A stretch of DNA of 64,000 nt, taken from IMG/VR virus record IMGVR_UViG_3300025073_000448, one strand, 5' to 3'. The position numbers and the translations under genes were made by a program. Positions 19,504-53,346 of the stretch are shown here, piece after piece. The stretch is from a virus. Below the pieces are notes generated by a model. The model searched no databases and was not told where the DNA came from. It worked only from the letters and a program-made list of their open reading frames with translations. The stretch's first letter is position 1. Each line of letters starts with the position of its first letter.

Positions 19504-19593
19504 GTGTTCCCCACATGCGCGGGGATGAACCGATGATGATCGACGGGCTGGTCACAGTCAAGGTGTGTTCCCCACATGCGCGGGGATGAACCG
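19504..19593 (+). CRISPR. Type I-E-like CRISPR mini-array: 2 identical 29-nt repeats, 1 spacer of 32 nt, no cas genes
   Basis: GTGTTCCCCACATGCGCGGGGATGAACCG at 19504-19532 and 19565-19593; spacer ATGATGATCGACGGGCTGGTCACAGTCAAGGT. Confidence 0.93.
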
Positions 19594-34793: not shown

Positions 34794-35312
34794 ATGAAGA
34801 GAACAAAGGCTATCAAGACGAAGGCAAGCATGGCGAAGAAAAGAAGGTCCTCACCCTTCAAGGCAATTCCTGTGGGATTTTCAATCTTGGCCTCCATTCT
34901 CATCTTCATGGCATTCTTCGTGCTCCCGTCAGTCTCTCATGCCGTGGATTGCGCTCTCACTCCATTCACTCATGGCCACACCACGCGCTATGCAATAGCC
35001 TGGACATCGGACGGAGCTGGAGCTTACGCATGCACCACTACCATTCCCCTTCTTGGCCGCATTGACCAGTTCATCACAGATCCATCTGCTGATGCTCTCG
35101 CTCCGGATGCAGCTTATGACATTTCCCTTTCCGGGGCCGCTACGGGAATCGACCTTGATGGCGGGAGCCTGGACAATCGAAGCGCCACCGCGACCGAGGC
35201 GGCGCTGCCCGTGCTGGGAGAATTGTGGATTTTCGAGAAGGTTACGGTGGCCGTTAGTGCTGCCGGGGCCGCGAACGGCGGGGTGATCTACATTGATGTT
35301 GAGAGGCCATAG
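34794..35312 (+). CDS. Hypothetical protein with predicted signal peptide
   Basis: Basic N-terminus, hydrophobic core, SHA cleavage motif. Confidence 0.7.
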   Translation: MKRTKAIKTKASMAKKRRSSPFKAIPVGFSILASILIFMAFFVLPSVSHAVDCALTPFTHGHTTRYAIAWTSDGAGAYACTTTIPLLGRIDQFITDPSADALAPDAAYDISLSGAATGIDLDGGSLDNRSATATEAALPVLGELWIFEKVTVAVSAAGAANGGVIYIDVERP

Positions 35313-35352
35313 GAAGAACGGCCGCAGAAAGAGAAGTCAGCAAAGGAGTTGC

Positions 35353-38346
35353 ATGGGCATGAAATCATATAAATATTTGTTGTTTACATTTTTTATCGCA
35401 TGCTTTTTTGTCGTGTCATTTCATCTTCCTTGCTCTCATGCCGCGCGAGGCCGCATCCTCCTTTCTGAGCCTGATGGAAGTCCCAGCAAGAAGCCTGTTT
35501 ATGAGATCCAGGTCCCAAACGGTACGCTTACCGAAGCTGCCGGGATCGGGAGTATCGCTGTGGAACCTGCACAGACTCCTGCATCACAAGTCGAGGCCGA
35601 AGCAGGGACCGAAGCTGGCTTGAGATCGTGGTCGCCAGTGCGTATCTGGCAAGCTATTCTTGCGGCCACCGGCTGGACTTCAGACGGAACCACTACCAGC
35701 ACAACGCAGGACACTGGACGCATTTCGTATGTTCGGACAGAAGCGGCATTGATCGCGGCAAATGCCGATTCCGGCGTTAAAAAGATAACTCCGATGCTGC
35801 CGTACACATTGACGGCTCCGTTTGTGTTGGCTTCCGGGAAGACGTATGCTCCGCTTCCTGGGGCTATCGTCACGACATCTGCAGTGAACACATTTGACCT
35901 TTCAGCCGGGCACCTGGAGGACAACGGCGGGAAGATGTTTTCGAGTCTGCCTGGAGAGGTATTTGGATTATCCGAAGCACCTATTGAATCGTGGGGGGCT
36001 CTCCCAAATAGTGCCAGCTATGCGACACAAAATACTAATGCTTTTAAGTGCGCCCTATATAGCATGACTTATTATATCGGAGCCACTAAATATATTGGGG
36101 GGGTGTTGAATGTTGGTATAGGAGATTTTTATATTGACGATGAAATAACTGCTGATCCATCAGTTTACTACATTGGCAGCATTAATGGACAAGGAAGATC
36201 ATCTTCTATAATTCAAACAAATGCTGCAAAGTCCATATTTAATTTTCAAAAAGCTTATCGTATATCACTTAGTAATTTAATGCTTTCCGGTGGAATATCC
36301 GGCTTAATAGTTAACGGGACCAATGTGGATGAAAATGTTTCATCAATAGATGGTGTGCATTTTAGTGGTCAGACAAGTATATCACTTGATGCACAATCTG
36401 GTTTCACGTCAAGTGAGTTAAACGTTAAAAATTGTACGTTCTCTGGTGCTGCAACCTTTATATCCACTTATTGTGATTATACAAATATATTGCAGTCTTG
36501 GGCGTCAACCACTGGAGATGTTCCAGTATTCATTAACCACGGTGGAACTATCACAATCAAGAATCTAGTGGGTGTCCCGACTAACAGTGGAAGTAATTCT
36601 TGTTGGGTTCGTAATTACAACCATGCGTATCTTGAAAACAATAGATTTGGAAGTGAAGATGGGCGCGGCAGGACGGTTTTAGAGCAAATGGGAACAGGTG
36701 CAAGCATAAATGTTACAGCTATCAATAATTATTGTCCTGTCAACGATTATGCTTATAAGTTTTACGAACTACCGGCGCATTTAACTTTGAATGGCAATTA
36801 TGGCTATGATAATCTTGGGGAAGCCTATTGCAAGGGTATATGGGTGGATGCTTCTGCTAGTGCCACTAATGATCCTTCGGACTATGTTTTACGCGACAGG
36901 ATAGTGTTGAGATGGGTGTACTCAGCCGGTCAATCGACAACATTAACGTCTAAAATATTTGCATTGGGAGAAGCGGAAAAAATAAATATTCAATCTCCTA
37001 TTATAGAATTCTCTGATCTTGTGTCTTCATTTACCTCTCTTGCAATGCCAGAAAAAGCAGACAGCAATGTTAATATTACTGTCGGTACAGCGGCATACCC
37101 ACCGTTGGGTGGTGCCGTGCTTACTACTCTTACCGCTACTGACGATTCTGCTAGTTGGGCAACAAACCGTAATGATGTTGTGTCCAATCATGGCACCGCA
37201 GGAAACGCATATACGTGGGTGATTGATCTTGTAGTTACCGGAAATTCTGTTCCACCATACATGACTTGTTACATTCAAGGGCAATATAAACGTTTTGCTC
37301 TTAGGTCTGGTGTTAATATTCTATCCATTGTAGCATTGGAACCAAATCCACAAGAAGGATGGGAAATTGCCTTTTCTCAAATCACTTCTGGAACCGTGAT
37401 AGCCATAGGAAGAATAAGACAATTTCTCGGAATAAAAAATATAGAAACTGTGCATACGGTGTTCACTGATTCAAGCACAAATTCACCTACTTCAGATGCT
37501 TACCACCGATATGATCTTGGGGATAGGGTGAATTACACGAATCCAGTCAGTGCTGGCAAAATAGGCGCAATTGTAACAACCGCAGGGGACAACGGTGGAG
37601 AAGCATGGAAAACATGGGGACTTATCGACATCCAAATTGCCTCAAACACCGAGGCAGCCGCAGCTTCAAGTACGTCCGTGGCTTTAGTTCCTGGTAACAC
37701 TTACGGGACATTCACGGGGTCAACAGTCAGAGATGACCCCAAGCTCCCGGAAGCGTTTCAGGATCTTGAGACTGCGGTGGAGACCAAGGCTCCGCGCCTC
37801 ATGGATACCATTATTCTGACCGCACCATCCGGCGTTCACACCACAACCGATGACAGTGCGACGCTGATCCATGCCGACGATTCAAGCGCCACCTCTGCAA
37901 AAGTTGGTATGATGCTCTACAACGTCACAGATACATCAAGCTGCACGGTTACAGCCTCGACAGCCACCGGAGCAACCTGCACTCTTGCAGGTGGGACCGA
38001 CAACAACTGGGACATCAACGACGTCTATCAGTTCGGGCCTGGACCTGCTCAGTCCGGTTCGGTTTTCCATGCTTCCGTTGCCGGCACGATTCGGCATCCT
38101 GCAACTGCGAACTATTTTGCGTGTTACCGGACTGATGCTGCTGCCGTGTTGACCGTTGATATGGTGTCTGACGCGATGCAATTCAACGGTGATGTGGGCG
38201 GGTCATACTCGGCGGGTATTGGGGCCGGGGACTGCATAGATTCACCAGCGACGGCAGGGAGTTATATGTGCCTTCACAACCGATCCTCCACGGTAGCAGA
38301 TGGACTCAATTATAGAAACCAATGGGAGGACGGCGGGGCCAGCTAA
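35353..38346 (+). CDS. Tailspike/tail fibre with beta-helix-like central module and predicted signal peptide
   Basis: ASQVEAEAGTE fibre motif, WGA...NTNAFKCA, Asn/Ser/Gly-rich AT-rich core; N-terminus MGMKSYKYLLFTFFIACFFVVSFHLPCSHA. Confidence 0.7.
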   Translation: MGMKSYKYLLFTFFIACFFVVSFHLPCSHAARGRILLSEPDGSPSKKPVYEIQVPNGTLTEAAGIGSIAVEPAQTPASQVEAEAGTEAGLRSWSPVRIWQAILAATGWTSDGTTTSTTQDTGRISYVRTEAALIAANADSGVKKITPMLPYTLTAPFVLASGKTYAPLPGAIVTTSAVNTFDLSAGHLEDNGGKMFSSLPGEVFGLSEAPIESWGALPNSASYATQNTNAFKCALYSMTYYIGATKYIGGVLNVGIGDFYIDDEITADPSVYYIGSINGQGRSSSIIQTNAAKSIFNFQKAYRISLSNLMLSGGISGLIVNGTNVDENVSSIDGVHFSGQTSISLDAQSGFTSSELNVKNCTFSGAATFISTYCDYTNILQSWASTTGDVPVFINHGGTITIKNLVGVPTNSGSNSCWVRNYNHAYLENNRFGSEDGRGRTVLEQMGTGASINVTAINNYCPVNDYAYKFYELPAHLTLNGNYGYDNLGEAYCKGIWVDASASATNDPSDYVLRDRIVLRWVYSAGQSTTLTSKIFALGEAEKINIQSPIIEFSDLVSSFTSLAMPEKADSNVNITVGTAAYPPLGGAVLTTLTATDDSASWATNRNDVVSNHGTAGNAYTWVIDLVVTGNSVPPYMTCYIQGQYKRFALRSGVNILSIVALEPNPQEGWEIAFSQITSGTVIAIGRIRQFLGIKNIETVHTVFTDSSTNSPTSDAYHRYDLGDRVNYTNPVSAGKIGAIVTTAGDNGGEAWKTWGLIDIQIASNTEAAAASSTSVALVPGNTYGTFTGSTVRDDPKLPEAFQDLETAVETKAPRLMDTIILTAPSGVHTTTDDSATLIHADDSSATSAKVGMMLYNVTDTSSCTVTASTATGATCTLAGGTDNNWDINDVYQFGPGPAQSGSVFHASVAGTIRHPATANYFACYRTDAAAVLTVDMVSDAMQFNGDVGGSYSAGIGAGDCIDSPATAGSYMCLHNRSSTVADGLNYRNQWEDGGAS

Positions 38347-38397
38347 GGAGACGGTTGGGTGGGTGCGTTGATATTTTGTTGGAGCGGAGAAGGATTG

Positions 38398-38697
38398 ATG
38401 GGGAGAATACTGCTTACGATAGCTATCACCATCATTCTTGCGTCCTATTCCTTCGCGGCAGACATCCCGTTGGAGTGGGACGCCTCAGCCGGAGCGACCG
38501 GCTACAAGCTCCAGATCTCAACGACTAGGGGCCGGTCATGGGGAGAGATTCGGGACACGGGGAGCGCCAAGACCGAGTACGTTTGGCGTGGCGCTCCCGA
38601 TAAGGGGCTCTTGATGTTTCGGATCATGAGCTATAACGCCCATGGCAAGGCGTGGAATACCACCCATGGGGTTTGGGTTAAACCCCAACGAAAATAA
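38398..38697 (+). CDS. Fibronectin-III-like protein with signal peptide
   Basis: ...YSFA then LEWDASAGATGYKLQ...FRIMSYN. Confidence 0.7.
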   Translation: MGRILLTIAITIILASYSFAADIPLEWDASAGATGYKLQISTTRGRSWGEIRDTGSAKTEYVWRGAPDKGLLMFRIMSYNAHGKAWNTTHGVWVKPQRK

Positions 38698-38757
38698 TAT
38701 GCACCATGCACCATGCTACAGCCATAACAACGAAAAAAAGAAAAGGAGAACCACGAA

Positions 38758-40416
38758 ATGGAAAGAATTGACAAAAGAATTACCCAAAGCACCACCATCA
38801 CCAAAAGCAGCAAAAAGGAAACCCTCGGCAAGGTCCTCACTCTCTTCCTGGGGATTATTTGTTTTCTCGGGATCACAATCGCGGAGGCGGCTCGCTACGA
38901 AGTCCTCACCGTAAACAAGCTCGAGATTACCCGCGGCGGGAAAATTGTATCCATGGACAGTCTCGACGTGGACACTACAGGTGACATGATCTTTACGGTG
39001 ACAGCCAGTGCTGCCGGCGAGGACATGATTTTCGATCTCAACGGAAACCAAAACGCTTCCATTCTCATTTCAAGCGAAGGGTCAGGGGCCGATTCCGTAA
39101 AGGTGGAGACGCTAACCAATGGCGGCGACATCATCGTAAGCTCCGTGGACAACATTCAGATCACCAGCACTACGGCATCTGGGTTGATCGACATTGATGG
39201 CACGGCCGGGCTGGTTTACTCCATTGCAGAGGATGACACCACGGCCGACAACATCGATATCGGGTCTGCAAAGGATGACGTTGACATTGAAGGAGAGGAC
39301 ATTACCCTCGATACAGCCGATGATGGCAATGCAACGGTAGCCGATGACTGGACCTTTACCATGGAATCAGCCGGAGGCATTTTTGCTGTTACCGGTACGT
39401 CCGGTTTTACCATCAATATCGGCACCGACGACACCACGGCGGATACCATTAATATAGGCTCGGCAAAGGATGCCACCACCATCTACGGTAATGACCTGAT
39501 CTTGGACTCAGCGGACGACCTGGAATTCAACGTAGCCGATGATTACACTGTCCGAATGGAGACCGCAGGCGGTATCGCTTCGTTCGACGGGACCCTTGGG
39601 GCAGTTTATAGCATAGGAACGGACAATTCGGTTGCTGACGATATAGACATAGGTTCGGCCCTGGATGATGTGGATATCGAAGGCGAGGACATTACCCTCG
39701 ATACAGCCGATGATATGGACTTCGCGGTTGCCGACGATCTTACGGTATCCATGGAGAGCGCAGGGGGCATCTTTGCTGTAAACGGAACCTTGGGAGCCAC
39801 TTACAACATCGGAACGGACAATTCGGTAAAGGACACCATCACCATCGGTTCAGCTCTTGATGATGTGATTATAGCTGGTACACCCGGCGTAGAAGCTGGA
39901 GCCGGTGCCGGTGTCGTGGCTGCGGAAAGATGTGTTGGGGCGATATGCCAAACCGTCTTCACGTTGACCAATGCAACCATTGCAATCACCGATCCGGGCG
40001 GGGCCGCTGCTTACGGCGGGCTGAAAATCTACGACTTCCCCGAGGGCAGATTGCTCGCCATGGGTGTCGTGGCCGACCTCACTCTGACCGAGGCGTCAGG
40101 AACGATAGACGCTGCTTTTGACGGCGATATCTCGCTCGGCACTACGGCAGCAGAGGCTACCCCTACCCTGCATAATCCGACCACGGAAGACGACTGGGTC
40201 CCCACGGTGGCAACCACTCAGGCGGTAGCAAGTGTTGCTGCCGCTGATTTCCAAAGCACCGTCACCGAGCAGGTTTATCACGACGGTCACACAACGGCCA
40301 TCGATCTGTATCTAAACGTGGAAGTGGATGATGCCGACATCACGACCGGTGCGGCAGACTCTTTGACCGCCAATGGGACCATCACGGTTACTTGGATAAA
40401 TTTAGGGGATAATTAA
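38758..40416 (+). CDS. Acidic repeat protein with N-terminal TM/signal segment
   Basis: About 3.4 copies of a 65-aa Asp-rich repeat; C-terminal KIYDFPEG...LYLNV domain. Confidence 0.75.
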   Translation: MERIDKRITQSTTITKSSKKETLGKVLTLFLGIICFLGITIAEAARYEVLTVNKLEITRGGKIVSMDSLDVDTTGDMIFTVTASAAGEDMIFDLNGNQNASILISSEGSGADSVKVETLTNGGDIIVSSVDNIQITSTTASGLIDIDGTAGLVYSIAEDDTTADNIDIGSAKDDVDIEGEDITLDTADDGNATVADDWTFTMESAGGIFAVTGTSGFTINIGTDDTTADTINIGSAKDATTIYGNDLILDSADDLEFNVADDYTVRMETAGGIASFDGTLGAVYSIGTDNSVADDIDIGSALDDVDIEGEDITLDTADDMDFAVADDLTVSMESAGGIFAVNGTLGATYNIGTDNSVKDTITIGSALDDVIIAGTPGVEAGAGAGVVAAERCVGAICQTVFTLTNATIAITDPGGAAAYGGLKIYDFPEGRLLAMGVVADLTLTEASGTIDAAFDGDISLGTTAAEATPTLHNPTTEDDWVPTVATTQAVASVAAADFQSTVTEQVYHDGHTTAIDLYLNVEVDDADITTGAADSLTANGTITVTWINLGDN

Positions 40417-40458
40417 GCAAAGGTTGGCCTTGCGCTGATTGCGTACTGATAATACAAT

Positions 40459-40534
40459 GATCGCGCGGTCTAGGGAGAGATCCCCGAAGAGCCCATACTC
40501 CCGCATGGGCCTGGCCGCGCGATCTACTTTTTTT
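40459..40534 (+). ncRNA. Three-way-junction RNA element 4 (apparently stand-alone)
   Basis: 12-bp outer stem GATCGCGCGGTC/GGCCGCGCGATC, GGGA-GAGA-UCCC hairpin, GCCCAU-ACUCCCGC-AUGGGC hairpin, T7 tract. Confidence 0.65.
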
Positions 40535-40891
40535 CATATCTTCACTTCCATCCACGGGAGCCGTGGCAACACGTCGGTGGCGACTATCGGCGCTGTCTAG
40601 GCTCCAAATAATCATCAACCATCACATTACAATCAGCACCATCATTCACATCAACCACCACACACCTCAACGCATTGCCTTGAGCGGAACACCGTGGAGG
40701 AAGTGGCTTAGATCCATCCCTTCTCGGCTCCGCCAGGCACAACCAGAGAATACCTCGAAGGGAGGGAGTGGGACAGGCTCGCGGTTCCGGGCTCGCCATG
40801 TTGGTTGTGGATCATCCACGCCACGGTGAACACCCTTAGCGCGCGGCCTTGCTCCCCGCCCCACCCTTCAAGGCTCTCAAAAGGAGAAAGT

Positions 40892-42604
40892 ATGTCCGGC
40901 TTGAACGACGTAGTGAAACAGGCACAGCAGCAAATCGATGCCATTGAACACGCTTTGGGAATACCGCAGCAGACGCCCGGCGAGGGATCGCCCCCGGGCC
41001 AGGCGAACACGGCTCCCATGGGCGCTCAAGGCGGAGAAGGCGGCGGTGCCACGGCGCCACAACCAGCGCAACCCGGTCAGCAAGGGCAGCAGCAGCCAGG
41101 CCAGCCCGCACAGCAGCCCCAACAGCAACAGTCCCTTCCCTTCCAGGCTCAGCAGGATCAGCCTCAACCGGGTCAGCTTGCTCCGCAGCAGCAGACACAG
41201 CAGCAGATCACGACTGAAGACCGGAAATGGGAAAGCATGTACCGCACGGCAGAGCAGAAGTTCCAGGTCCTCCAGGGAAAGTACAACGCAGAGGTCCCGC
41301 GGCTGCAACACCAGCTCCGCGAGACCGAGCAGAGGGCTTCCACCTTCGAGGCCAAGGCTTCTACACTCGAGCAGCGTATGGTGCAGCTTGAACAGGCGAT
41401 GCAGGCAGGGCAAGGCGGAGCAGTGCAGGCCAGCCAGACAGGGCAAGGAAGTCAGGGCCAGCAGGGACAATTCAACCAGCAAGGCCAGCAAGGCAAGGCA
41501 GGGCAGGCAACACAGCAAGGCGCATCCGGTGCAAACGGGGGATTCCCGATAGACCTATCCGGAGTGGACTTCGAAACTCTCGCGGCCACTTACCCGGATG
41601 ATCTCGCCCCCATGATCAGGATCATGCCGCAGATGGTTCAGCACATGCAGTCCCAGGAAGGTGTCATAGCGAACCTGCAACAGCAACTCGCGGCGACAAC
41701 CGAGGGAATGCGAAAGGTTGTGACCAATGTGGAGCAGGTCAACGCCGAGCGTGCCGGCAATGCCCAGCGAGCTTTTCATGCCGAGCTTGGAAGGATTTGT
41801 CCCGAATGGCAGCAGATCGACAACATGCCCGATTTTCACAACTGGCTGGATCAACGGAAACCCATGTCGGTCAGAACATACCGGCAGGATGCCGAAGAGG
41901 CATGGGGGGCTGGTGACGCCGTGGCCGTCGCGGAGTGCTACAACGCCTTCAAGTCGGACTTTTTATCAAACCAGGGGCAGCGGCAGAATGGGCAGCAGCA
42001 AGGAAATGTGCAGAATCCTGGAAGCCAGCAGCCCCACAACAATCAACAGCCGCCCGATGGATCATGGCAGCAAGGGCAGGGTCAGCAGCAGGGCCAGCAG
42101 AACCAGCAGCAGGTCCAGCAAGGTCAACAAGGAAACAGTGGTCAGCAGCAGCAGATCGTGCAGCAGGGTCAGCAAGGGAATCCTCAGTCTCAACAGCAGA
42201 CATTCATGCAGTTCGATGAATTTGGGCAGCCCATCTACATAGGGCCCCAGGTCAACCAGCAGGTCCAGCAGGGACAGCAGCTCCAGCAAGGGAATCACGG
42301 GGGGCAGCAGCAAGGCCAAAATTATCAGCAGGGCCAGCTTCACAACCCCCTGGAGTACATGGTTGAACCGTCGCCAATGGCCGGGAACCCCCCGCAGGCC
42401 CCTCAACAGAAGAGGATTTACACGATTCAGGAAATCACGGACCACAACACCAGGATGACCAAAAACCCGAGATTGCTGCAAGATCCTACCTGGGCGGCCA
42501 TGGAAAAAGACATGGCCAACGCCGTCCTCGAAGGAAGGGTTGCGGGGCAGCTACCAGACATGCGCCTCCAATCCGGAGAAGCTCGGTTTGTGCAGGGGAT
42601 ATAG
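40892..42604 (+). CDS. Capsid scaffolding protein, Gln-rich
   Basis: AAGGAG RBS; FQVLQGKYNAEVPRL; C-terminal A..EGRV; directly upstream of the capsid gene. Confidence 0.75.
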   Translation: MSGLNDVVKQAQQQIDAIEHALGIPQQTPGEGSPPGQANTAPMGAQGGEGGGATAPQPAQPGQQGQQQPGQPAQQPQQQQSLPFQAQQDQPQPGQLAPQQQTQQQITTEDRKWESMYRTAEQKFQVLQGKYNAEVPRLQHQLRETEQRASTFEAKASTLEQRMVQLEQAMQAGQGGAVQASQTGQGSQGQQGQFNQQGQQGKAGQATQQGASGANGGFPIDLSGVDFETLAATYPDDLAPMIRIMPQMVQHMQSQEGVIANLQQQLAATTEGMRKVVTNVEQVNAERAGNAQRAFHAELGRICPEWQQIDNMPDFHNWLDQRKPMSVRTYRQDAEEAWGAGDAVAVAECYNAFKSDFLSNQGQRQNGQQQGNVQNPGSQQPHNNQQPPDGSWQQGQGQQQGQQNQQQVQQGQQGNSGQQQQIVQQGQQGNPQSQQQTFMQFDEFGQPIYIGPQVNQQVQQGQQLQQGNHGGQQQGQNYQQGQLHNPLEYMVEPSPMAGNPPQAPQQKRIYTIQEITDHNTRMTKNPRLLQDPTWAAMEKDMANAVLEGRVAGQLPDMRLQSGEARFVQGI

Positions 42605-42803
42605 GGGAGTGTGAGGCGGCGCAGTGGGTGCTGGGCGGAGAATGCGAGCTGGCAATGTAGCCTTCTCACAAAGATCAGCCAGGCACACGCCGCCTTCCAG
42701 TTCCATCCCCTTCAAGGCCGATTCAACTTTATCCAGAAACCCGAGAGGATGAGCCGCTGACCTTCTACATAATCTTGCAATTTCCCAAGAAGGAGATACT
42801 CTC

Positions 42804-43739
42804 ATGGCTTTCATTCCCGCAGCGGGACATCCCAATTATCAGGGGACTTTCATCCCCTATCTGTTCAGTCAGAAAGTGCTGGTCAGGCTGTATGATGCAC
42901 TTTGTCTTCCCTTTATCTCGAACACAGATTATCAAGGCGAGATCACCGGCTTTGGCAGCCAGGTCATCATCAGGAAAGACCCCGACATCAACATCTTCGA
43001 CACCGTGCCCGGCGCCGAGCTCCCCGTTCAGAAGCCGGATACCGACACGGAAACCCTGACCATCGACCGGGCCAAGGGCTGGAACTTCTTGGTCCACGAT
43101 TTCGACAAGGCCCAGAGCGACATCAACATCATCGACCGCTGGTCGGTGGTGGCGGTCGAAAACAAGAAGCGGGCGATTGAAACTCAGGTGTTCGGTGCCA
43201 TGTATGCCGACATCCACGCGGACAACCAGGGCACGACGGCCGGCACCAAGAGCGGCGCGTTCAACCTGGGAACGAGTGGGGCTCCAATCGCCATCGACAA
43301 GACCAACATCATCGACTACATCGTCCACCTCGGAACGGTGCTTGATGAGCAGAACATCCCGGAAGACGGCGGGTGGTGGATTCTTCTTCCGCCAATTTTC
43401 GAGAACATGATCAAGAGGAGCGACATAAAGGACGCTTCCCTTACCGGTGATGCGATGTCCACCCTCCGCAACGGGGGAAGAATCGGGCGCATCGACCGCT
43501 TCACAGCATACAAAACCAACAATGTCCCCTACGTCGCGGACGGCTCCGGCGTCACGGCCTACTACATCATGGCCGGCCACAAGATGGGGCTCACTTTCGC
43601 CATGCAGGTGGAGAAGTCCGAGGCCATCCCCAGCCCCACCACGTTTGGCAAGCTCATGCGCGGTTACGCCGTGTACGGCTTCGAAGTGGTGCGGCCCGAG
43701 GCCATTTCGCTCCTGTACGCCAATGCGGTGTTGACGTAA
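42804..43739 (+). CDS. Major capsid protein
   Basis: FIPYLFSQKVL...NTDYQGEI..FGSQVII, LTIDRAK, IGRIDRF, GYAVYGFEVVRPE. Confidence 0.9.
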   Translation: MAFIPAAGHPNYQGTFIPYLFSQKVLVRLYDALCLPFISNTDYQGEITGFGSQVIIRKDPDINIFDTVPGAELPVQKPDTDTETLTIDRAKGWNFLVHDFDKAQSDINIIDRWSVVAVENKKRAIETQVFGAMYADIHADNQGTTAGTKSGAFNLGTSGAPIAIDKTNIIDYIVHLGTVLDEQNIPEDGGWWILLPPIFENMIKRSDIKDASLTGDAMSTLRNGGRIGRIDRFTAYKTNNVPYVADGSGVTAYYIMAGHKMGLTFAMQVEKSEAIPSPTTFGKLMRGYAVYGFEVVRPEAISLLYANAVLT

Positions 43740-43760
43740 GGAGATCGCAGGACCGAGAAC

Positions 43761-43817
43761 AGTATGCCTTGAAGGAGAGGAGACAGCAACCCGCGCCCTT
43801 TCCCTTCAAGGCATACT
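43761..43817 (+). terminator. Hairpin after the capsid gene (second 47-bp REP-like element)
   Basis: AGTATGCCTTGAAGG/CCTTCAAGGCATACT, 15-bp perfect arms, T-rich tail. Confidence 0.7.
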
Positions 43818-43876
43818 TCATTTTCTATCATTTTCACCATCCTACCATCCCCTACCTTTAAGGAGGTATATCAATC

Positions 43877-44371
43877 ATGTCCAATTACGATGTGAGAGCA
43901 ACCGCCCTGAATGGGCTTGGAGGCACTTCCTTTAGTGTCCCTGCCTACGGCAATTCCCTGCGCTCGGTGGCGTACAAGAGATTCAGCTTTGCGGACCTCG
44001 TTACGGCCCCGGTGCAAAATGATGTTGTCGTTTTCATGACCATCCCGGCCAAGAGCCGGGTTCATAGCGCAAACCTCGTCGTGGTGACCCCGGAAGGAGA
44101 AGCGTCCACCATTCACATTGGAGACTATTCCGACCTCGTGGGCTCCGCCGTCGATGCCGATGGCTGGCTGAAGGGCGTCTCTATCAATGGCGTGGCCGGC
44201 ACCGGGGGAGGCACGGGCGGGAACACGGAGGCTTATGGTGCTGCCGGCGGCAAGTTTTATGCGGCTGAGGCCTACATGGCTATCACCTGTCCCGACAACC
44301 TCACGTACAATACGGCAGTCGTGGATATCTGGATTGACATCACCAAGTATTACGACGAGGAAGGCGATTAA
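43877..44371 (+). CDS. Capsid decoration/cement-like protein
   Basis: Position after the capsid gene; beta-rich, DVVVFMTIPA. Confidence 0.6.
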   Translation: MSNYDVRATALNGLGGTSFSVPAYGNSLRSVAYKRFSFADLVTAPVQNDVVVFMTIPAKSRVHSANLVVVTPEGEASTIHIGDYSDLVGSAVDADGWLKGVSINGVAGTGGGTGGNTEAYGAAGGKFYAAEAYMAITCPDNLTYNTAVVDIWIDITKYYDEEGD

Positions 44372-44544
44372 GATTCAGCATTTCAGGACATGACGAAGCA
44401 TTGGCCTGGAAGGGGAGATGGCAGGACCCACCTAAATGCGGCCACTTTTCTTCCAGGCATTCATCACATTCACCGTCATCATTACCATTTCTACCACCCC
44501 ACATCGAAGCGTAAAATGCGGGAGAAAGGCAGGACAGCACAACC

Positions 44545-45201
44545 ATGAAGCCGAAACCGAGAAACAAGCCACCCTTTTTGCAGCAGAAAACCACGGGGAG
44601 AGTTTTCGCATACACCGTTGAGCTTGAGCAGTACCGCACCGACATGGTGCCGTTTTGGGGAACCCAGGAAGAAGCGAATGCCGCGAATGAGCGGATCCGG
44701 CTGGACAGGGCCAGGAAGAGGAATGCCGCGGCCGTCGGGGTCGGGCTCACTCAGCCGGTCACTCAGTCTGCCGAGCCTGCCCCGCCCGTTGAAATGTCCC
44801 CCCCCTTCGCGGATCTTTTGCCGGCCGGGGCGCTCGGACCTCCCGAAGTAATACCTCCTTTATCCTCGAAGGGCGGGCTCCTTTCTTCCGGGGTCATCGT
44901 GGAGACTGATGAACAATCACCTCCAGTGATGCTTGCCAAGGGTGATTTTCTTTTGGAGCAACAGGCACTGGATGATGTAGATTTCGCGGAGCAAGTCACC
45001 TCTTCCAAACGAGGCATGGAATACCTGAAAACCATCGAAGGCGATATGTCAAAGCTCCGCGAGTACGGCCGGGAGAATTTCAACGTGAAGTTTCCCCCGA
45101 GCACGACCATGGATGTGATTTTCAAGGAGCTTGTTCTTATGGAGGCCGCAGGTCCCATGGAAACCATCGAGCTTGACGGCCCCGTTGACCCGCAGGAATA
45201 A
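44545..45201 (+). CDS. Hypothetical head-module protein
   Basis: ORF between decoration and adaptor genes. Confidence 0.7.
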   Translation: MKPKPRNKPPFLQQKTTGRVFAYTVELEQYRTDMVPFWGTQEEANAANERIRLDRARKRNAAAVGVGLTQPVTQSAEPAPPVEMSPPFADLLPAGALGPPEVIPPLSSKGGLLSSGVIVETDEQSPPVMLAKGDFLLEQQALDDVDFAEQVTSSKRGMEYLKTIEGDMSKLREYGRENFNVKFPPSTTMDVIFKELVLMEAAGPMETIELDGPVDPQE

Positions 45202-45249
45202 AGAGCATCTCAATTTAGTATTCCCTCCACCCTTCAAAGGAGTATTGCC

Positions 45250-45933
45250 GTGGCGTTGACCGCATACGATTTCATATCCCAGGAGTCAAGGATCGTTGAT
45301 GAGCTTCAAGAGGATATGTCCGATCCTACCCGCTACACTCAATCCATGCTCCTGCGGTACCTAAATGAGTCCCAGCGTCTCATCGTCTCCCTGCGTCCCG
45401 ACGCCACGGCAACACCCAAGAGCATGCAATGTGCCCCCGGAACCAAGCAGGTCATCCCTACCGGGGATGTTCGACTCATCGAAGTGATCAGGAACATGGG
45501 GAGCGACGACTTGACACCAGGACGTCCCATCATAAAGACCGATAAGGTGACGCTCGATAGGTACAGTTACGCTTTGAGCTGGCACACCGAGGCTGCTTCC
45601 ACTGTGATTCGGGAGTATGTTTTTGATGAAAGGTTTCCCAGGCATTTTTATGTGACGCCTCCGGTTCATGCCGCAACCCCTGTCTATGCTGAGGTTGTGG
45701 TTGCGGCGGCTCCGGTTGATTGCACTGGAGATACGAGCGAGATCGGGATTCCGGACATTTATCAGACTGCGCTGAATGAGGCTGTACTTTGGATGGCATT
45801 CTCCATGGACATAGACAGCGCTGCGAATCAGGCACGGGCTGCGTTTCACTTGCAGCATTTGTATCAGGTGCTTGGCGTCAAGATGCAGGCTGATAGCTGG
45901 GCGAACCCTCGAGTGCGGAGACCGGCGGCATAG
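45250..45933 (+). CDS. Head-tail adaptor (DUF6682-like)
   Basis: LLRYLNESQRLIVSLRPDA, GTKQVIP, FYVTPP, YQTALNEAV. Confidence 0.75.
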   Translation: MALTAYDFISQESRIVDELQEDMSDPTRYTQSMLLRYLNESQRLIVSLRPDATATPKSMQCAPGTKQVIPTGDVRLIEVIRNMGSDDLTPGRPIIKTDKVTLDRYSYALSWHTEAASTVIREYVFDERFPRHFYVTPPVHAATPVYAEVVVAAAPVDCTGDTSEIGIPDIYQTALNEAVLWMAFSMDIDSAANQARAAFHLQHLYQVLGVKMQADSWANPRVRRPAA

Positions 45934-46009
45934 GACCAGTGGTGTGGGGCTAGTGGTGTAGAGAAAGGCCAGCGGTGTGATGACGGGAATGAAAACAGAG
46001 ATAGGTGCA

Positions 46010-49000
46010 ATGATGACGATGAAAATGAAAAGCTCAACTCCAAGAATCCTTTCCTTTGTTCTGGTGGCCGCATTTCTGTTGCCTTCTTTTTGTCTTGCTC
46101 AGACATCCACGACGGCCGGCCCTGGCAGGATAACTCCGAACACCACCATTGTTCGAACGTTAGGTGAACTGACTGCGGCAACCACGGATGCCAACTACGG
46201 AATATTGGCTGGGAAGAGTTTCACTCTTACCGACAGCATGGAGATCCCCGTAACGAAGGTTTTCTCGCAGGCGCCTGGTGCGATCATTGACACGAATGGG
46301 CTCTTGCTCACCATTTATAACGACGGAGAACATCCACCGAACCAGCAGCGATTCGCTACAGGGAGTGAAGTTTCCTTTCCTGATGGCTCCACCGTGTACT
46401 CGGGATGGTTTGTTTCCTTGGTGGAAGCCGTGGATGCGCTGGGGCTTTCGCCGAATGTGAAGTTGGTGCAGAGCGAAGCTGAGACGCTTGGTGGTCCGGT
46501 GGTTATCCCTTCTGGGATGACGTTCACTGTTCTTCCCGGTGCAATACTTACAACGTCAGCCGCGAACACTCTAACCTTTGCATCCGGTTCTGTCCTTGAA
46601 GACAATGGCGGGCAGATGTTCAGTAGTCTCCCCGGCGAAGTCTTGATGCCATACGCCTTGGAAGTCAGACCGGAGTGGTGGGGAGCGATTACCACTTACG
46701 ACACCACGACCTATACTCACGCCGCAGCCAACCAAAACGCCATTTTTTGTGCGTACAAGGCCTTGTCGAATACTACCGGGGCGACACTTATCGGTGCATC
46801 GAAGATCAAATTCCGGGCCGGAAACTATGTGGTTGACGATGGATTTGACCTGACTGATGCCAGTCTGAGCGGTGGCTGGAAGACCATAATCTTTGAAGGT
46901 GAAGCGTGGAGAACCACGTTCATTACATTGCACAACGACTCGGCTACTTACCTCTTCAAGGATGACGACACCGGCAACGAGGGCCGGAGTTATGAGTTTA
47001 GGAATTTCCAGTTTAAGAATACCATCGCTTATGTTGCCGGCGTCTCTTGGCATCCAGCCACAGCCATCCAGTTGAAACATTGCCTCAATAGCAAATTTGA
47101 GAATCTGTATTTTCGTGAGTTCACTGAAGGTATGAACTTGGACGCGAATGTTGACGGTGCAGTGGTTCACAGTTCTATTTTCAACCAGGTAATCAATTGC
47201 AGGGCCGTGTACTGTAAACGCGGTTTCACGCTTGGGAATAACTCCAATAATTGGGTTATTTCTGACTCCAATGCCTATGGATGCTACTACACGGCCACTC
47301 CGCTCGAGGGGTGGGGCTTCTCGCTCTACAAGTCTAAGGGCGTTAGTTTTCTTGGTGCGAACGTTGAAGGCGGCGGGGCTTCCCCTGGATTCCTCATCAC
47401 GGCATCGTCTGGGGTGACAATTAGTGGCGGGGATATTGAGAATTACACCAACGGTCGCTCAATCATCGTGATGGGAGATTCGGTTGGCAATCTTGAGGAC
47501 ATCCGAGACTGGTCTACCGGGATCGTGGTTTCTGGTGTGAAATTTTGGAACGCTCTTGGCGTCGAGGTGAGGGATGGTGTTTCTGGTTTAACGATGACCG
47601 GGAATGGATGGACGAATAGTTATCCGGCATCCGGATCGGCTCCCGGAGCCCTCAACGCATTTCGTATAGTAAGCACCGCAAGTCCAAAGTACATTCGCGG
47701 AATAGAATACGATGACTCAAATGCTTGGCCTCACGGGATAGCTCCCACCGCCCATACCACAGTGGGCATGAACCACGCCGTGCGATACAACGGTCAGTCC
47801 TGGAAGTCGGCGGCCAACGCTCCCAACACGGCATACGGGACATGGACTCAGGGAAGCCGGGTGATGTGGACCGTCAATCCTGCCTTTTATTGGGTCGTGA
47901 AGGAGTCGGGGACACTCGGGACGCTCAACGCAGGCTGGACCACGGCGACCGGAACGAACGGAGCCACATCGCTTGTGCTTGATGACGCAACGGATGCATT
48001 CCCCGGCATGGTCGTGGACCTTACGATGGATGACGCCTCAACGCATACGGCTACCATTGGGACGTGCAACTATGACACGCTGGCGTGCTCGGTGTACCCG
48101 GCCCTCGACGCCAATATCACGGCGGGGGCTGTTGCCTACCATGCTCCCGTGTTTGTTCTGGAGGGTGAGGACAATACCTCTCAATCATTGGCCTACGCAA
48201 CGCCACGGTCAATTGATCTTTCTCTCGGGGGCGTGGTGCAGGTTGATGAGCTAACCGGTAACATAGAGTTGTCCAATCCGACGAACGGGCTAGTGGGAAC
48301 CAGATTTATTGTGGTTCTCTATGCCGATGCTACTCCTCGAACCATCACCTATGGGACGGCATATAGGGTCGGGGCTCCTTCAAGTATTGCCGCAAGTCAG
48401 TATCTCGCCCTTGAATTCATGCAGGCGGCAACGGGGGCCGGTGGGATTCGATTCATGGGTGTTCCGCTGGGTTACACGAACCTTACGGACTTCGACAATC
48501 AAACCGCTTGGCGAGTGTTCTATTCCAACGGGAGCGGAGATACGACTGAACTGGCACTCGGCGTTGACGGAACCTATCTGCGGAGTAATGGTGCAGCGGT
48601 CGCTCCGACGTTTGACACGCCGGCTTCGCTATCTGCGGCGTCCGTGAATGACGTCAACACAGGAACCAGCACGACAACCGCCGTAACCCCTGACGCTTTG
48701 GCCGGATCAAACATCGGGACGCGCATGGTCCACCTTCTTGTGACAGCCGATGACGCCGCTCTCGCTGTCGGTGATACGAGCGGAATGTTCCGAGTTCCTG
48801 CCGAGATGAACGGCATGGTTTTGGTGTCGGATGCGGTTCAAGTTGGAACCGTAAGCAGCGTGAACAACCCTACTTTCAAAGTTGAGAAATTCCGACTTTC
48901 AGCGGCAGCTACGCGGGACGCAGCGGTTCAGATGCTTTCCACAAATCTCACTATCGATGCGACCGAGTATGACTCGAAGGATGCCGCGACGCCTGCTGTT

Positions 49001-49123
49001 ATCTCTGCCGTAGCCGGGGCCGCTACTGTTTCAACCGGAGACACAATCAAGGCTTCGTGCGTCACGGAAGCAGGCACCGGAACCAAAGGCGGAGCCGTGA
49101 CTCTCGGATTCAGATCACCTTAA
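46010..49123 (+). CDS. Second tailspike with pectate-lyase-like beta-helix and predicted signal peptide
   Basis: RPEWWGA...NQNAIFCA, KIKFRAGNYVV, IIFEGE, beta-helix repeats; N-terminus ...LSFVLVAAFLLPSFCLA. Confidence 0.75.
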   Translation: MMTMKMKSSTPRILSFVLVAAFLLPSFCLAQTSTTAGPGRITPNTTIVRTLGELTAATTDANYGILAGKSFTLTDSMEIPVTKVFSQAPGAIIDTNGLLLTIYNDGEHPPNQQRFATGSEVSFPDGSTVYSGWFVSLVEAVDALGLSPNVKLVQSEAETLGGPVVIPSGMTFTVLPGAILTTSAANTLTFASGSVLEDNGGQMFSSLPGEVLMPYALEVRPEWWGAITTYDTTTYTHAAANQNAIFCAYKALSNTTGATLIGASKIKFRAGNYVVDDGFDLTDASLSGGWKTIIFEGEAWRTTFITLHNDSATYLFKDDDTGNEGRSYEFRNFQFKNTIAYVAGVSWHPATAIQLKHCLNSKFENLYFREFTEGMNLDANVDGAVVHSSIFNQVINCRAVYCKRGFTLGNNSNNWVISDSNAYGCYYTATPLEGWGFSLYKSKGVSFLGANVEGGGASPGFLITASSGVTISGGDIENYTNGRSIIVMGDSVGNLEDIRDWSTGIVVSGVKFWNALGVEVRDGVSGLTMTGNGWTNSYPASGSAPGALNAFRIVSTASPKYIRGIEYDDSNAWPHGIAPTAHTTVGMNHAVRYNGQSWKSAANAPNTAYGTWTQGSRVMWTVNPAFYWVVKESGTLGTLNAGWTTATGTNGATSLVLDDATDAFPGMVVDLTMDDASTHTATIGTCNYDTLACSVYPALDANITAGAVAYHAPVFVLEGEDNTSQSLAYATPRSIDLSLGGVVQVDELTGNIELSNPTNGLVGTRFIVVLYADATPRTITYGTAYRVGAPSSIAASQYLALEFMQAATGAGGIRFMGVPLGYTNLTDFDNQTAWRVFYSNGSGDTTELALGVDGTYLRSNGAAVAPTFDTPASLSAASVNDVNTGTSTTTAVTPDALAGSNIGTRMVHLLVTADDAALAVGDTSGMFRVPAEMNGMVLVSDAVQVGTVSSVNNPTFKVEKFRLSAAATRDAAVQMLSTNLTIDATEYDSKDAATPAVISAVAGAATVSTGDTIKASCVTEAGTGTKGGAVTLGFRSP

Positions 49124-49132
49124 GGAGAGACG

Positions 49133-50512
49133 ATGACCGGATTCTTGATTACATTCATTGGAATAGTTCTTTGGGTGTTATTTCAATCCACCAAGCGCAA
49201 TTACAATATGGTGAGCACGATTTGCGGAATCGTATTTTGGGTGCTGCTTATTGCTTTTCTGCCGGTTCACGCTACTGACGTGGTGAGCGAATTCGCCGAG
49301 ACCGAGAATCTTGGAGGCGGACTCCGCAAGATGACGATCCACTCCGCCCCGATAGGCTACGAGGAAGCCGGAAAGTGGAACCGAATCGAGACGGACTGGA
49401 CAGACTCTGGCGACGGCTCCCGACCCCACGCCATTACGAAGTCAAGGCTCATGACGACCGTTGGCGATGACGGAATGCGGAGGATTCATCCTACTCGGGA
49501 GTCCGGCAAATACATCGAGATTGGGTGTCCCTATGTGAAGCCAGCCGCGAATTGGGTAAAGGTCCCGTGGTCCGGAGCACAGCGAAGCGCAAACAGGATC
49601 ACTTGGACCCGCCCCGAAGCCGATATGAGCATTGTTCACGCCGGCCACTATCTCAAGCTCGACATTGAGTTGAAAGGGGGCTACGTGCCCCCAGGTGGGA
49701 AGTTCGCCTTCCCGGTTGGTATCCAGGGGCTCACCCGTTCGGGGAACCAGATCCTCGATGGCGAGAAAGTCGTCATGGTGCTCAGGAAGCCCGTGGCCTA
49801 TGACGCTGCCAATCCAACGGACGTGAGGGATATAAGCTCTCAATTCGTGGGCGTGAATGGGCAGACGTACATCCTGTTCACGCTTCCCGATTTGACGGGG
49901 ATGTCGATGCCGGTAGTAGATCCTACGTTGACGTTGCAACCGGACGGGGCGGCGGGAGAGGACACGTATCTAAGGAGTGATTCAGCCACATCCAACTACA
50001 GCACATTGACCACTCTAAGGGCCGGAGAATCTAATGCGGTGGCGTCCGTAAATAGGGCACTTCTACGGTTCAGTGCTACATCGCTTCCTGGTAGTATTAG
50101 GATAACGTCTGTTGGTTTAAGTTTAAATGTTCTGGAAGACATTTCTTCTAATGCACGAACTATGAGAGTTTTCCGTCTGCTCCGCTTATGGGTCGAATCG
50201 GAAGCCACTTGGAACATCTGGAAAACTGCCAATAATTGGTCTACTGCTGGCGGGTTTCATGCTAACGACTGTGAGCAAACCGATATTGGGAGCGTCGCAT
50301 TGTCGGCCACCGAAGGGGTGGGGTCGTGGATCACAATTCCGTTGTCAATCAACAGTAGAGTTGATCTAGGGCTTATCAATGGGCTAATGTTAAAAATGGA
50401 TACAGAAAACGACGACATGTATGGCTTCTGCTCTTCCGATCACGCCACCGCCGAGAATCGCCCCAAACTGGAGATCACATACCGATTCTTGAACCCGGTC
50501 ATTATGTTCTAA
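49133..50512 (+). CDS. DNRLRE-domain (carbohydrate-binding-like) protein with TM/signal segments
   Basis: LQPDGAAGEDTYL...NY...RALLRF...ENRPKLEITY. Confidence 0.75.
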   Translation: MTGFLITFIGIVLWVLFQSTKRNYNMVSTICGIVFWVLLIAFLPVHATDVVSEFAETENLGGGLRKMTIHSAPIGYEEAGKWNRIETDWTDSGDGSRPHAITKSRLMTTVGDDGMRRIHPTRESGKYIEIGCPYVKPAANWVKVPWSGAQRSANRITWTRPEADMSIVHAGHYLKLDIELKGGYVPPGGKFAFPVGIQGLTRSGNQILDGEKVVMVLRKPVAYDAANPTDVRDISSQFVGVNGQTYILFTLPDLTGMSMPVVDPTLTLQPDGAAGEDTYLRSDSATSNYSTLTTLRAGESNAVASVNRALLRFSATSLPGSIRITSVGLSLNVLEDISSNARTMRVFRLLRLWVESEATWNIWKTANNWSTAGGFHANDCEQTDIGSVALSATEGVGSWITIPLSINSRVDLGLINGLMLKMDTENDDMYGFCSSDHATAENRPKLEITYRFLNPVIMF

Positions 50513-50525: not shown

Positions 50526-51242
50526 ATGCCAATTATCAGCTATTCATGGCCGGTGACGCACTGGATGTTACCGCCTGATTGCACCGAGCTTGAGATGGAT
50601 TCCCCAGACATTATCTGCTCTCGCATCGCTCACGCGACAGCCGAGCAGAAGCAGCACTTCCGAGACCGGGGAAAAATCATCTTGCACACAGTCACAGGAT
50701 TGTCGGCCCTCCTGGCTACGGACGGCGCACTTCTGGCCGCCATGATCGACGCCACGGAGGGACATCCCGTGGACGGTCTGAGCCTGGATGAGTTCTGTTT
50801 GGGGAAGTACACTCCCGCCCAGCGCACGGCTATCAAGACGGCAATCATGGCCTACCGGGAGAGGTATCCTCACATGTTGCTACATGCCTGGGTGGGGTAT
50901 TGTCTGACGACCATGGACGGCCCGACCGTGAAATTGCTCTATAACCTGTTCGATTGGGTGAGCCCTGAACTCTATATCAAGGAGGGCGATCCCATCACCA
51001 TGCAGGTGTTTTTGAGGCGATACCGGGCGCAGGTGGACTTGTCAAGAACATTGGTAGGCTTGGCCATCCATAAAGATTACCGGATCACAGAGACAGGCTG
51101 GCTTCCTCACCTGGCCGCGCAGATCCGGCGAGTGACGGCGCTTGGGTGCGCGGGTGTGGCCATGTGGGCTCCGGTGCATTTGCGGGATAGCGGGGAGCGA
51201 AAGGCAGTGGATGCTTTACTGTCTGGCGCAGTGGATAAATAG
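50526..51242 (+). CDS. Hypothetical protein, possible glycoside-hydrolase-like barrel
   Basis: DGLSLDE, DWVSPELY, GVAMW motifs (weak). Confidence 0.45.
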   Translation: MPIISYSWPVTHWMLPPDCTELEMDSPDIICSRIAHATAEQKQHFRDRGKIILHTVTGLSALLATDGALLAAMIDATEGHPVDGLSLDEFCLGKYTPAQRTAIKTAIMAYRERYPHMLLHAWVGYCLTTMDGPTVKLLYNLFDWVSPELYIKEGDPITMQVFLRRYRAQVDLSRTLVGLAIHKDYRITETGWLPHLAAQIRRVTALGCAGVAMWAPVHLRDSGERKAVDALLSGAVDK

Positions 51243-51912: not shown

Positions 51913-52590
51913 ATGGGCGGAACAGGGTCGGGAACATCAGTAACTCCGATAGGGTCGGTATCCTTCGATCTCTTCCTTCCGGAAGTCTTGCCGCACGTCC
52001 CTGGGTGTCCGGTGGTTATAGCTCTAAATGCCATAAGGAACGCATGTCGTGAGTTTTGCCGCATGTCAACGATATGGCGTGACTGGCTCGGCCCCCTCAC
52101 CTCGGTCGTGGATCAGCCGACGTACACGCTTCTCGTGGATGCCGGAACGGAGGTCGTGGTTCCAACGAAGGTAAGGTATGACGGGAACGACATAGATGCC
52201 GCGGCTAGAGAGGTCCTCGATCATCTCCTTCCGAACTGGGAATCAGCGGAGAGCGGGACACCCACGCAATACCTTGTCGAGACTCAAGGAACCATCAGGC
52301 TTTATGTTCCTCCCGACGAAGCGACGGCAGACATTATCGAGGTTGAGGCCGCACTCAAGCCGTCGGCTGTTGCCACGGCGGTTGGAGACGTCGTTTACAA
52401 TGACTGGCTAGAAACCATCGCAGCAGGAGCCATCTCACGCCTCATGAAAATCCCAAAGGCAGACTGGAGCGACATCAAGCTTGCCGTGTACTACGAAACG
52501 ATCTTTCAAGACGGGGTAGCCATGGCGAGACATACCGTCGATGTGGGCCATGTCAAGCGATCCAGGCAGGCCAAGATGATGCGGTGGTAA
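51913..52590 (+). CDS. Tail adaptor / tubular protein A-like
   Basis: FLPEVLPHVPGCP...AIRNACREFC, LKPS, IAAGAISRLM.IP..DWS. Confidence 0.75.
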   Translation: MGGTGSGTSVTPIGSVSFDLFLPEVLPHVPGCPVVIALNAIRNACREFCRMSTIWRDWLGPLTSVVDQPTYTLLVDAGTEVVVPTKVRYDGNDIDAAAREVLDHLLPNWESAESGTPTQYLVETQGTIRLYVPPDEATADIIEVEAALKPSAVATAVGDVVYNDWLETIAAGAISRLMKIPKADWSDIKLAVYYETIFQDGVAMARHTVDVGHVKRSRQAKMMRW

Positions 52591-53240: not shown

Positions 53241-53280
53241 CTCGAGGCAAGAGGTAGTTCAGCGCAATAAATCCTTGATC

Positions 53281-53324
53281 GATCAATTCTTGACTGGATC
53301 AATTCTTGACTGGATCAATTCTTG
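53281..53324 (+). repeat. 16-bp tandem repeat x2.75
   Basis: GATCAATTCTTGACTG at 53281 and 53297, partial copy at 53313. Confidence 0.9.
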
Positions 53325-53346
53325 GAAGGAAGGAGCACCCACCTTC

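Follow-up and report, generated by a model that had tools for sequence, protein, structure and literature searches.

Tailed-phage structural proteins normally carry no signal peptides, and textbook assembly of the particle takes place entirely in the cytoplasm. What, then, are six proteins that begin like exported proteins doing in the midst of the virion genes of a phage? The question is raised by a 64,000-nt stretch of DNA from an uncultured virus, apparently of groundwater to judge from sample names that point to the Rifle aquifer data set (IMG/VR record IMGVR_UViG_3300025073_000448), which was analysed as a whole, is referred to below as the window, and consists of phage DNA throughout. 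An earlier note on this DNA had listed six genes with signal-like N-termini, starting at positions 34794, 35353, 38398, 38758, 46010, and 49133 and here named SP1 to SP6, and had placed them among genes for portal, scaffold, capsid, and adaptor proteins. Translation from these starts reproduced all six coordinates and N-terminal motifs, and family matches bore out the interleaving with portal, scaffold-like, capsid, and adaptor genes. Here we report that the six N-termini are very likely genuine signals of the general secretory (Sec) type, with predicted export of the proteins, and that the best overall explanation, to which we assign a probability of about 0.45, is export followed by docking on phage particles at lysis.

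Signals were called with our own heuristics (hydrophobicity, charge, and the motif at positions -3 and -1) together with comparative evidence; in what follows, L-numbers denote related loci or contexts, and P-numbers denote homologous proteins compared with the window. All six proteins start with a basic stretch followed by a hydrophobic stretch and a small-x-Ala motif within the first ~50 residues. The n-region and h-region expected of a Sec signal for signal peptidase I were found in six of six, those of SP1 and SP4 being atypically long, and small uncharged residues occupy positions -3 and -1 of the c-region in every case (SHA, SHA, SFA, AEA, CLA, and VHA, from SP1 to SP6). When ~60 open reading frames (ORFs) of the window were scanned for hydrophobicity, hydrophobic N-termini turned up only in SP1 to SP6 and in one doubtful ORF on the minus strand (10245-11066). 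Shine-Dalgarno sequences of the AAGGA(G) type lie upstream of the starts of SP2, SP3, SP4, and SP6, and the start region of SP5 has a weak ribosome-binding site and several Met codons. As the earlier note recognised, the signals would be illusory if the true starts lay downstream of the hydrophobic segments; no in-frame start with a comparable ribosome-binding site lies just 3' of the hydrophobic segment in any of the six genes, and this objection therefore fails, with mis-called starts rejected. The observed set of N-termini is real, far beyond chance. Cleavage by signal peptidase I is probable for SP2, SP3, SP5, and SP6; SP1 and SP4 may be either cleaved or retained as signal-anchors.

Two other kinds of N-terminus were considered and rejected. 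The motif S/T-R-R-x-F-L-K of the twin-arginine translocation (Tat) pathway is present in none of the six, KKRRSSPFK of SP1 having the wrong spacing. Nor does the h-region of any of the six end in a lipobox (L-[AS]-[GA]-C), the mark of a lipoprotein, the Cys residues in the signals of SP2 and SP5 lying outside a lipobox context; true lipoboxes were seen only in spanin-like genes of related loci.

The signals are also conserved across phages, as each of the six proteins has at least one diverged homologue that keeps its signal. The SP1 homologue of L002 is 80% identical, with a diverged n- and h-region and an identical PSVSHA/VDC. In the SP2 family, the n-region MKSYK and the site SHA/ARGR are fixed and the hydrophobic core varies in sequence and length; P0276, P0277, and P0278 share 74-77% identity with SP2 over its first ~100 residues, including the signal, and differ from it in their distal parts, and the signal is also kept in a 614-aa protein of L004. 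In L005/L006, an unrelated phage with a long tail, an SP3 homologue with its own signal is encoded immediately downstream of the tail-fibre gene. Between SP4 and its positional homologue in L003, only residues 16-64, comprising the hydrophobic segment and its flanks, are conserved (57%). The signal of SP5 is retained in P0003 (57% over the first 140 residues), P0004, L003, L004, and L007, and SP5 homologues at 30-57% identity keep the n-h-c layout. SP6 of L002 keeps LPVHA at the cleavage site despite an otherwise changed N-terminus. Among the 120 proteins of the SP6 family, ~108 start at the conserved first strand with no signal and ~11 (about 9%) are signal-bearing, their predicted cleavage falling 2-4 residues before the normal first residues of the family. 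Judged from this alignment of sites, the signal is a gain within an otherwise signal-less family.

Furthermore, the signals come in company. In all five contexts with a signal-bearing SP6 homologue (the window, L026, L028, L031, and L032), 2-5 further genes of the fibre region bear signals, and in both readable contexts with a signal-less SP6 homologue (L029 and L033) there are no signals among the structural genes. By a crude common rule, signal-rich loci gave 3-6 matches in 8-21 genes, compared with 0-2 matches in 20-36 genes, mostly lipoproteins or spurious ORFs, in four control loci. Judged by gene content, signal-bearing fibre genes are a trait of whole phages. Four such genes stand in a row in L004. 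Four consecutive ones follow the ejection-protein genes of L017 (10001-15608), an unrelated P22-like phage from marine sediment, namely a tailspike gene with Pfam Head_binding and three more, and are followed in turn by holin-like, endolysin-like, and lipoprotein genes. The tailspike of that phage, P0010, combines a signal with Head_binding; it occupies the tailspike position, and no other protein there has the domain. Signal-bearing genes likewise stand directly before such lysis genes in L028, L031, and L032. In the fibre cassette of L032, a Laminin_G_3 protein (6368-7195) begins with the twin-arginine motif TRREFLQ, and its counterparts in L028 and L031 have Sec-type signals; this interchange of Sec and Tat in orthologues indicates that the purpose of the N-terminus is to cross the membrane. 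Among cultured phages, gp49 of Burkholderia phage Bcep781 is annotated in GenBank as 'possible tail fiber; possible signal peptide domain'; the protein opens with a classical signal that ends AFA/QF and leads into fibre-type sequence. Taken together, conservation, a fixed cleavage motif, signal gain, Sec/Tat interchange, and co-occurrence give good support to the claim that proteins of the receptor-binding and depolymerase type carry real export signals.

We turn next to the six proteins themselves, beginning with SP5. Its AlphaFold2 (AF2) model, with a predicted local distance difference test score (pLDDT) of 81.6, has a low-confidence N-terminal part (residues 1-104), a right-handed parallel beta-helix (~105-820), and a compact tip (874-1037), and the helix was recovered by both AF2 and Foldseek. 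The best Foldseek match is Phi92 gp150 (E 5e-8), and phage tailspikes and depolymerases dominate among the matches listed, with Sf6, Klebsiella K1 lyase, TSP2 and TSP3 of CBA120, HK620, and P22. The fold therefore bears out the label of tailspike given to SP5 by the earlier note. The tip has 2639 metagenomic matches, with the nearest Atlas clusters 100% viral, and gave no tblastn match in GenBank phages. SP5-like genes lie between two adaptor genes in L001, L002, and L003, down to ~60% capsid identity.

SP2, the other ~1000-aa protein of the earlier note, is a different case, because its tailspike identity is drawn from a 120-aa pre-helix module which it has in common with SP5 (43% identity). 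From this module, and from a homologue with a Beta_helix domain (one of P0276 to P0278), we infer a beta-helix in SP2; comparison of an SP5-alignment profile with SP2 was uninformative, the profile being dominated by the tip domain. The protein consists of a signal (1-30), a conserved mature N-terminal module (~31-100), a low-GC insert, and a 238-aa C-terminal domain, which matches phrog_24595 'virion structural protein' and gave no tblastn match in GenBank phages. In the closest relative (L002/L009), SP2 is a 322-aa form made of residues 1-70 and 760-997; therefore SP2 of the window carries an insert of ~690 aa (residues 71-759, nt ~35563-37629). The insert has a GC content of 0.43 versus ~0.55 and contains the pre-helix module with LEDNGG, and its best homologue, P0275 (42% identical), starts with an apparent lipoprotein signal. 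A conserved N-terminal module with varied distal parts, as seen for SP2, is the typical design of receptor-binding proteins.

SP6 was named a DNRLRE protein in the earlier note, and this is confirmed by matches to NF033679 (71.6 bits, cut-off 34) and to CBM96 PF24517 (41.6 bits, cut-off 26). Two N-terminal helices and a beta-rich domain precede the CBM96/DNRLRE module (276-449). In the AF2 model (pLDDT 91.3), the C-terminal half matches by Foldseek the alginate- and chondroitin-sulfate-binding carbohydrate-binding modules 7vbo and 8wab, with target-normalised TM-scores of 0.66-0.70, and SP6 is accordingly classed here as a predicted sugar binder of the CBM96/DNRLRE type. The first hydrophobic helix of SP6 (49133-49210) is an extra one; in a relative with 70% identity, the N-terminal extension is unrelated and lacks it. 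As a side observation, the SP6 gene of L014 (3554-4884, 148 + 312 aa) and g218 of L013 (1591-2192, 83 + 135 aa) were each called as two pieces in single assemblies, which are either natural frameshift variants or assembly errors.

The remaining three proteins are less easily placed. The 'FnIII' label which the earlier note had given to SP3 found no Pfam support even at E<=10; clusters of the fibronectin type III domain (fn3) were seen among language-model neighbours only, and on this basis SP3 is described as FN3-like, its fold being unproven. SP4 has a 23-aa n-region, a 22-aa hydrophobic segment, acidic repeats of ~45 aa, and a C-terminal domain corresponding to phrog_11997, which in Pseudomonas phage Rollin makes up a signal-less 201-aa protein adjoining the tail fibre gene. 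The n-region of SP1 is long and basic, with KKRR, and leads into a hydrophobic core of 24 aa; the protein, with a mature part of ~122 aa, matched no family in Pfam, PHROG, or NCBIfam. None of SP2, SP4, SP5, and SP6 gave a useful match when searched by sequence against solved structures.

The particle of the phage resembles the short-tailed ones of GP4 and PBC5, and the relevant genes of the window are collected in Table 1. The 186-aa stub fibre, TFN_186, is the only protein of the window with a tail-attachment domain: its residues 3-105 align with the same residue numbers of a 439-aa protein in PDB 8jov, named 'putative tail fiber protein' and present as 18 chains, and its residues 5-167 correspond to the initial part of the fibre of Sinorhizobium phage PBC5, which is 378 aa long. 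The window yielded no candidate for a receptor-binding protein that lacks a signal, the downstream proteins of unknown function matching no tail-fibre family. The PDB 8jov_A match of the nozzle-like protein is labelled 'virion-associated phage protein'.

Table 1. Signal-bearing genes and virion genes of the window
Feature	Position	Strand	Length	Description
Large terminase	29612-31204			
Portal protein with HNH intein	31239..34496	+		Precedes the first block of signal-bearing genes
SP1	34794..35312	+	172 aa	Predicted cleavage SHA/VD after residue 50
SP2	35353..38346	+	997 aa	Signal 1-30, predicted cleavage SHA/AR after residue 30
SP3	38398..38697	+	99 aa	Signal 1-20, predicted cleavage SFA/AD after residue 20; small FN3-like domain
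SP4	38758..40416	+	552 aa	Predicted cleavage AEA/AR after residue 44
Scaffold-like gene	40805-42604			
Major capsid protein	42804..43739	+		HK97-type
Adaptor paralogue 1	45250..45933	+		SU10_adaptor
SP5	46010..49123	+	1037 aa	Signal 1-30, predicted cleavage CLA/QT after residue 30
SP6	49133..50512	+	459 aa	Predicted cleavage VHA/TD after residue 47
g238	50526..51242	+		No signal; travels with SP5-like and SP6 genes as cassette
Adaptor paralogue 2	51913..52590	+		Like gp81 of phage GP4 (12 chains in PDB 8jov)
Stub tail fibre TFN_186	52680..53240	+	186 aa	Tail-attachment domain of GP4-type fibre, no distal receptor-binding part
Nozzle-like hexameric tail protein	53275..55785	+		PDB 8jov_A (6 chains) E 2e-46; phrog_511

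The portal gene carries its intein at ~aa 550-790 (HNH nuclease; Intein_splicing E 7.7e-17), and the portal of L009, 82-99% identical to that of the window, is seemingly intein-free. In L003, a more distant relative, the match to the major capsid gene (5765-6958) is interrupted by ~1.2 kb (residues 1-42 + 46-311), which points to an intron or intein there. A scan of 33.5-53.4 kb for promoters and terminators revealed no excess over shuffled sequence.

The host is probably a diderm proteobacterium, because the fibre domain has cultured relatives in phages of Ralstonia, Burkholderia, Sinorhizobium, and other Proteobacteria; the holin-like, endolysin-like, and lipoprotein genes that follow the cassette in related signal-rich phages also speak for a diderm. 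The window also contains a type I-E CRISPR mini-array (19504-19593) of two repeats and one spacer, with a repeat one base off the common consensus; the exact repeat was found elsewhere only as a single variant copy in I-E arrays of an Acetobacteraceae and a Rhodobacter metagenome-assembled genome.

On the favoured reading, a GP4/PBC5-like short-tailed particle would be assembled in the cytoplasm, carrying only the 186-aa fibre stub. Late in infection, the same operons would send a set of glycan-recognising and glycan-cutting proteins across the inner membrane of the diderm host, that is, the tailspike-type SP2 and SP5, the sugar binder SP6, the repeat fibre SP4, the FN3-like SP3, and SP1. In the periplasm these proteins would fold and could already bind or cut nascent envelope polysaccharide. 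Once the holin breaches the inner membrane, the pool of periplasmic proteins would mix with the particles, and docking on the particles would most likely occur via the conserved mature N-terminal modules. Such joining after export is physically plausible, because P22 tailspikes attach to spike-less particles in vitro, and holin lesions join cytoplasm and periplasm before spanins break the outer membrane.

We infer export, which we hold to be very likely, together with cleavage, periplasmic activity, and docking at lysis, from sequence comparison and models, and that the exported proteins then join virions is a step to which we give slightly less than an even chance. A role in the virion is supported by the confinement of the tail-attachment domain to the stub, by the place of SP5 among the tail genes, and by the domain swapping of SP2 and SP5, and, in other phages, by signals directly before an attachment domain or fibre (Head_binding in P0010, gp49 in Bcep781). 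As to their fate, the evidence leans to a store of protein in the periplasm that would encounter particles at lysis, act on envelope glycans, or do both, the two roles being mutually compatible. In its most general form, the proposal would be a two-compartment assembly of some tailed phages of diderm bacteria, in which particles with stub fibres are made in the cytoplasm, Sec or Tat carries every distal receptor-binding or depolymerase protein into the periplasm, where these proteins mature and can already destroy the receptor of the infected cell, and addition takes place between holin action and rupture of the outer membrane, as a whole-phage trait that has arisen repeatedly in unrelated lineages; we regard this extension as tentative.

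Several points weigh against the favoured reading. Residues 31-104 of SP5, which are conserved with L003 and P0003, lie in the low-confidence part of the model and match no attachment domain in Pfam or PHROG. L005/L006 carry the same pre-helix module behind a classical fibre N-terminus, so that an SP5-type signal could have replaced the virion anchor instead of adding to it. In L026, the SP5-like, SP6, and g238 genes occur in the same order and lie upstream of the portal gene, and with this different position the block appears to behave like a movable accessory cassette. The unusually long n- and h-regions of SP1 and SP4 leave these two possibly uncleaved. Signal-bearing members of the SP6 family show no excess of cysteine over the other members (an excess in the mixed match set of SP5, 0.70% versus 0.32%, is confounded by domain content). 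Finally, host assignment from the CRISPR repeat was rejected, as the repeat is a common I-E variant and not diagnostic.

The first three of these points also favour an alternative in which the proteins are exported and never enter the virion. They would then form a free late toolkit, acting in the periplasm and, after lysis, in the surroundings, where it would cut or mask capsule, exopolysaccharide (EPS), or O-antigen, so that progeny are not trapped by debris or biofilm and infected cells lose their receptor, and the particle would adsorb by other means. The position of signal-bearing genes directly before the lysis genes in L017, L028, L031, and L032 fits this alternative, as does the Tat export of WceF, an EPS hydrolase of tailspike-like form, by bacteria themselves (PMC7949094). 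However, it would leave the phage with no visible receptor-binding protein, its tail-attached fibre being only the stub and none of the downstream proteins of unknown function matching a tail-fibre family. It also sits poorly with the SP2 module and its varied distal parts and with the fixed place of SP5, both typical of virion receptor-binding proteins, and with L017, where the signal is on the sole protein with a head-binding domain. We consider a purely free toolkit a serious but lesser possibility, with a chance of roughly one in three.

Alternatively, the proteins may be tethered to the membrane, with uncleaved signal-anchors, above all those of SP1 and SP4, keeping ectodomains of fibre-like type at the periplasmic face of the inner membrane, where these could obstruct receptors or incoming phages as a means of superinfection exclusion, or wait for the holin in the manner of signal-anchor-release (SAR) endolysins. 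The 23-aa n-regions and 22-24-aa hydrophobic segments of SP1 and SP4 would suit such anchors, the hydrophobic segment of SP4 is its best conserved part, with the remainder unrelated to the L003 protein, and SP6 of the window phage has a two-helix hairpin. Nevertheless, the small-x-Ala motif stands at the end of the hydrophobic segment in all six, relatives of SP2 and SP6 vary freely in the hydrophobic core but hold the cleavage motif constant, the 70%-identical relative lacks the first helix of SP6, and neither a lipobox nor a weakly hydrophobic Gly/Ala-rich segment like that of SAR proteins is present. As for display on the surface of the infected cell, which the earlier note had also put forward, nothing favours it, the six proteins having neither lipobox nor recognised anchoring domain. 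Tethering appears improbable. Still less likely is that the N-termini are no export signals at all but artefacts of start choice or buried structural helices of cytoplasmic virion proteins, for although the general rule for tailed-phage structural proteins and the poorly defined start of SP5 speak for this, the lack of an alternative start backed by a Shine-Dalgarno sequence, the n-h-c layout and -3/-1 rule in six unrelated proteins and their diverged homologues, the Tat motif in place of a Sec-type signal in the Laminin_G_3 orthologue, the signal placed ahead of an otherwise complete SP6 family, and the low background of the control loci all speak against it.

If docking at lysis is true, it would be a new assembly route. 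In a phage that exports all its host-recognition proteins, fibre attachment may occur outside the cytoplasm and depolymerases may act on the envelope of the infected cell before lysis, a matter that bears on receptor destruction, exclusion, and biofilm release. Software for gene calling or host-range prediction that assumes receptor-binding proteins to be signal-less may wrongly class such genes as bacterial secreted proteins, and recombinant depolymerases of this type would need to be expressed in the mature form. Our literature search found no mechanistic study of signal peptides or of Sec or Tat export on tailspikes, tail fibres, or depolymerases, and no study of the export of Bcep781 gp49; within that search, an export route for host-recognition parts is probably not described for tailed phages. 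Since unrelated phages from the environment and at least one phage in culture show the pattern too, it can be put to the test at the bench.

Comparison with known systems shows where the window phage departs from each of them. The adaptor, nozzle, and fibre attachment domain of the tail of Ralstonia phage GP4 (PDB 8jov) match those of the window phage, and the cultured phage PBC5 has the same tail genes; however, the fibres of GP4 (439 aa) and PBC5 (378 aa) are each made in one chain, whereas that of the window is a stub, and the homologues of the two adaptor genes adjoin in PBC5, whereas 5.9 kb (SP5, SP6, g238, and g198) lie between them in the window. Virion tailspikes (P22 gp9, Sf6, Phi92 gp150, the CBA120 TSPs, and Klebsiella K1 lyase) have the right-handed beta-helix fold of SP5 and combine a conserved N-terminal part with exchangeable distal parts, a pattern seen in both SP2 and SP5. 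Known virion spikes, however, have no signal peptide, fold in the cytoplasm, and possess a defined N-terminal particle-binding domain, whereas SP5 has a Sec-type signal and no such domain was detected in it. Other late phage proteins do use host export, such as Sec-dependent endolysins (Lys44 of Oenococcus phage fOg44) and SAR endolysins, and the exclusion lipoproteins Llp of T5 and Cor belong to tail modules, with their genes beside receptor-binding genes. These are muralytic enzymes or small lipoproteins, whereas the six proteins of the window, with neither lipobox nor lysin domain, are fibre-, spike-, or lectin-like. Closer in fold is WceF of Pantoea stewartii, a trimeric tailspike-like stewartan hydrolase exported by Tat (PMC7949094), that is, a tailspike-fold enzyme with a cleavable export signal whose substrate is exopolysaccharide of the producing cell, in the periplasm or beyond it. 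Unlike WceF, which is chromosomal, belongs to an EPS synthesis cluster, and uses Tat, the window genes are part of a late operon of a phage, stand among tail genes, and have Sec-type signals, and SP5 ends in a phage-only fibre tip. Bcep781, a cultured phage of a proteobacterium, resembles the window phage in having a tail fibre, gp49, with an N-terminal signal, but it is a myovirus and a single annotated case, and gp49 is unrelated in sequence to the six proteins. Set beside these systems, the six-signal set of the window represents a new form of the known tailspike and fibre systems.

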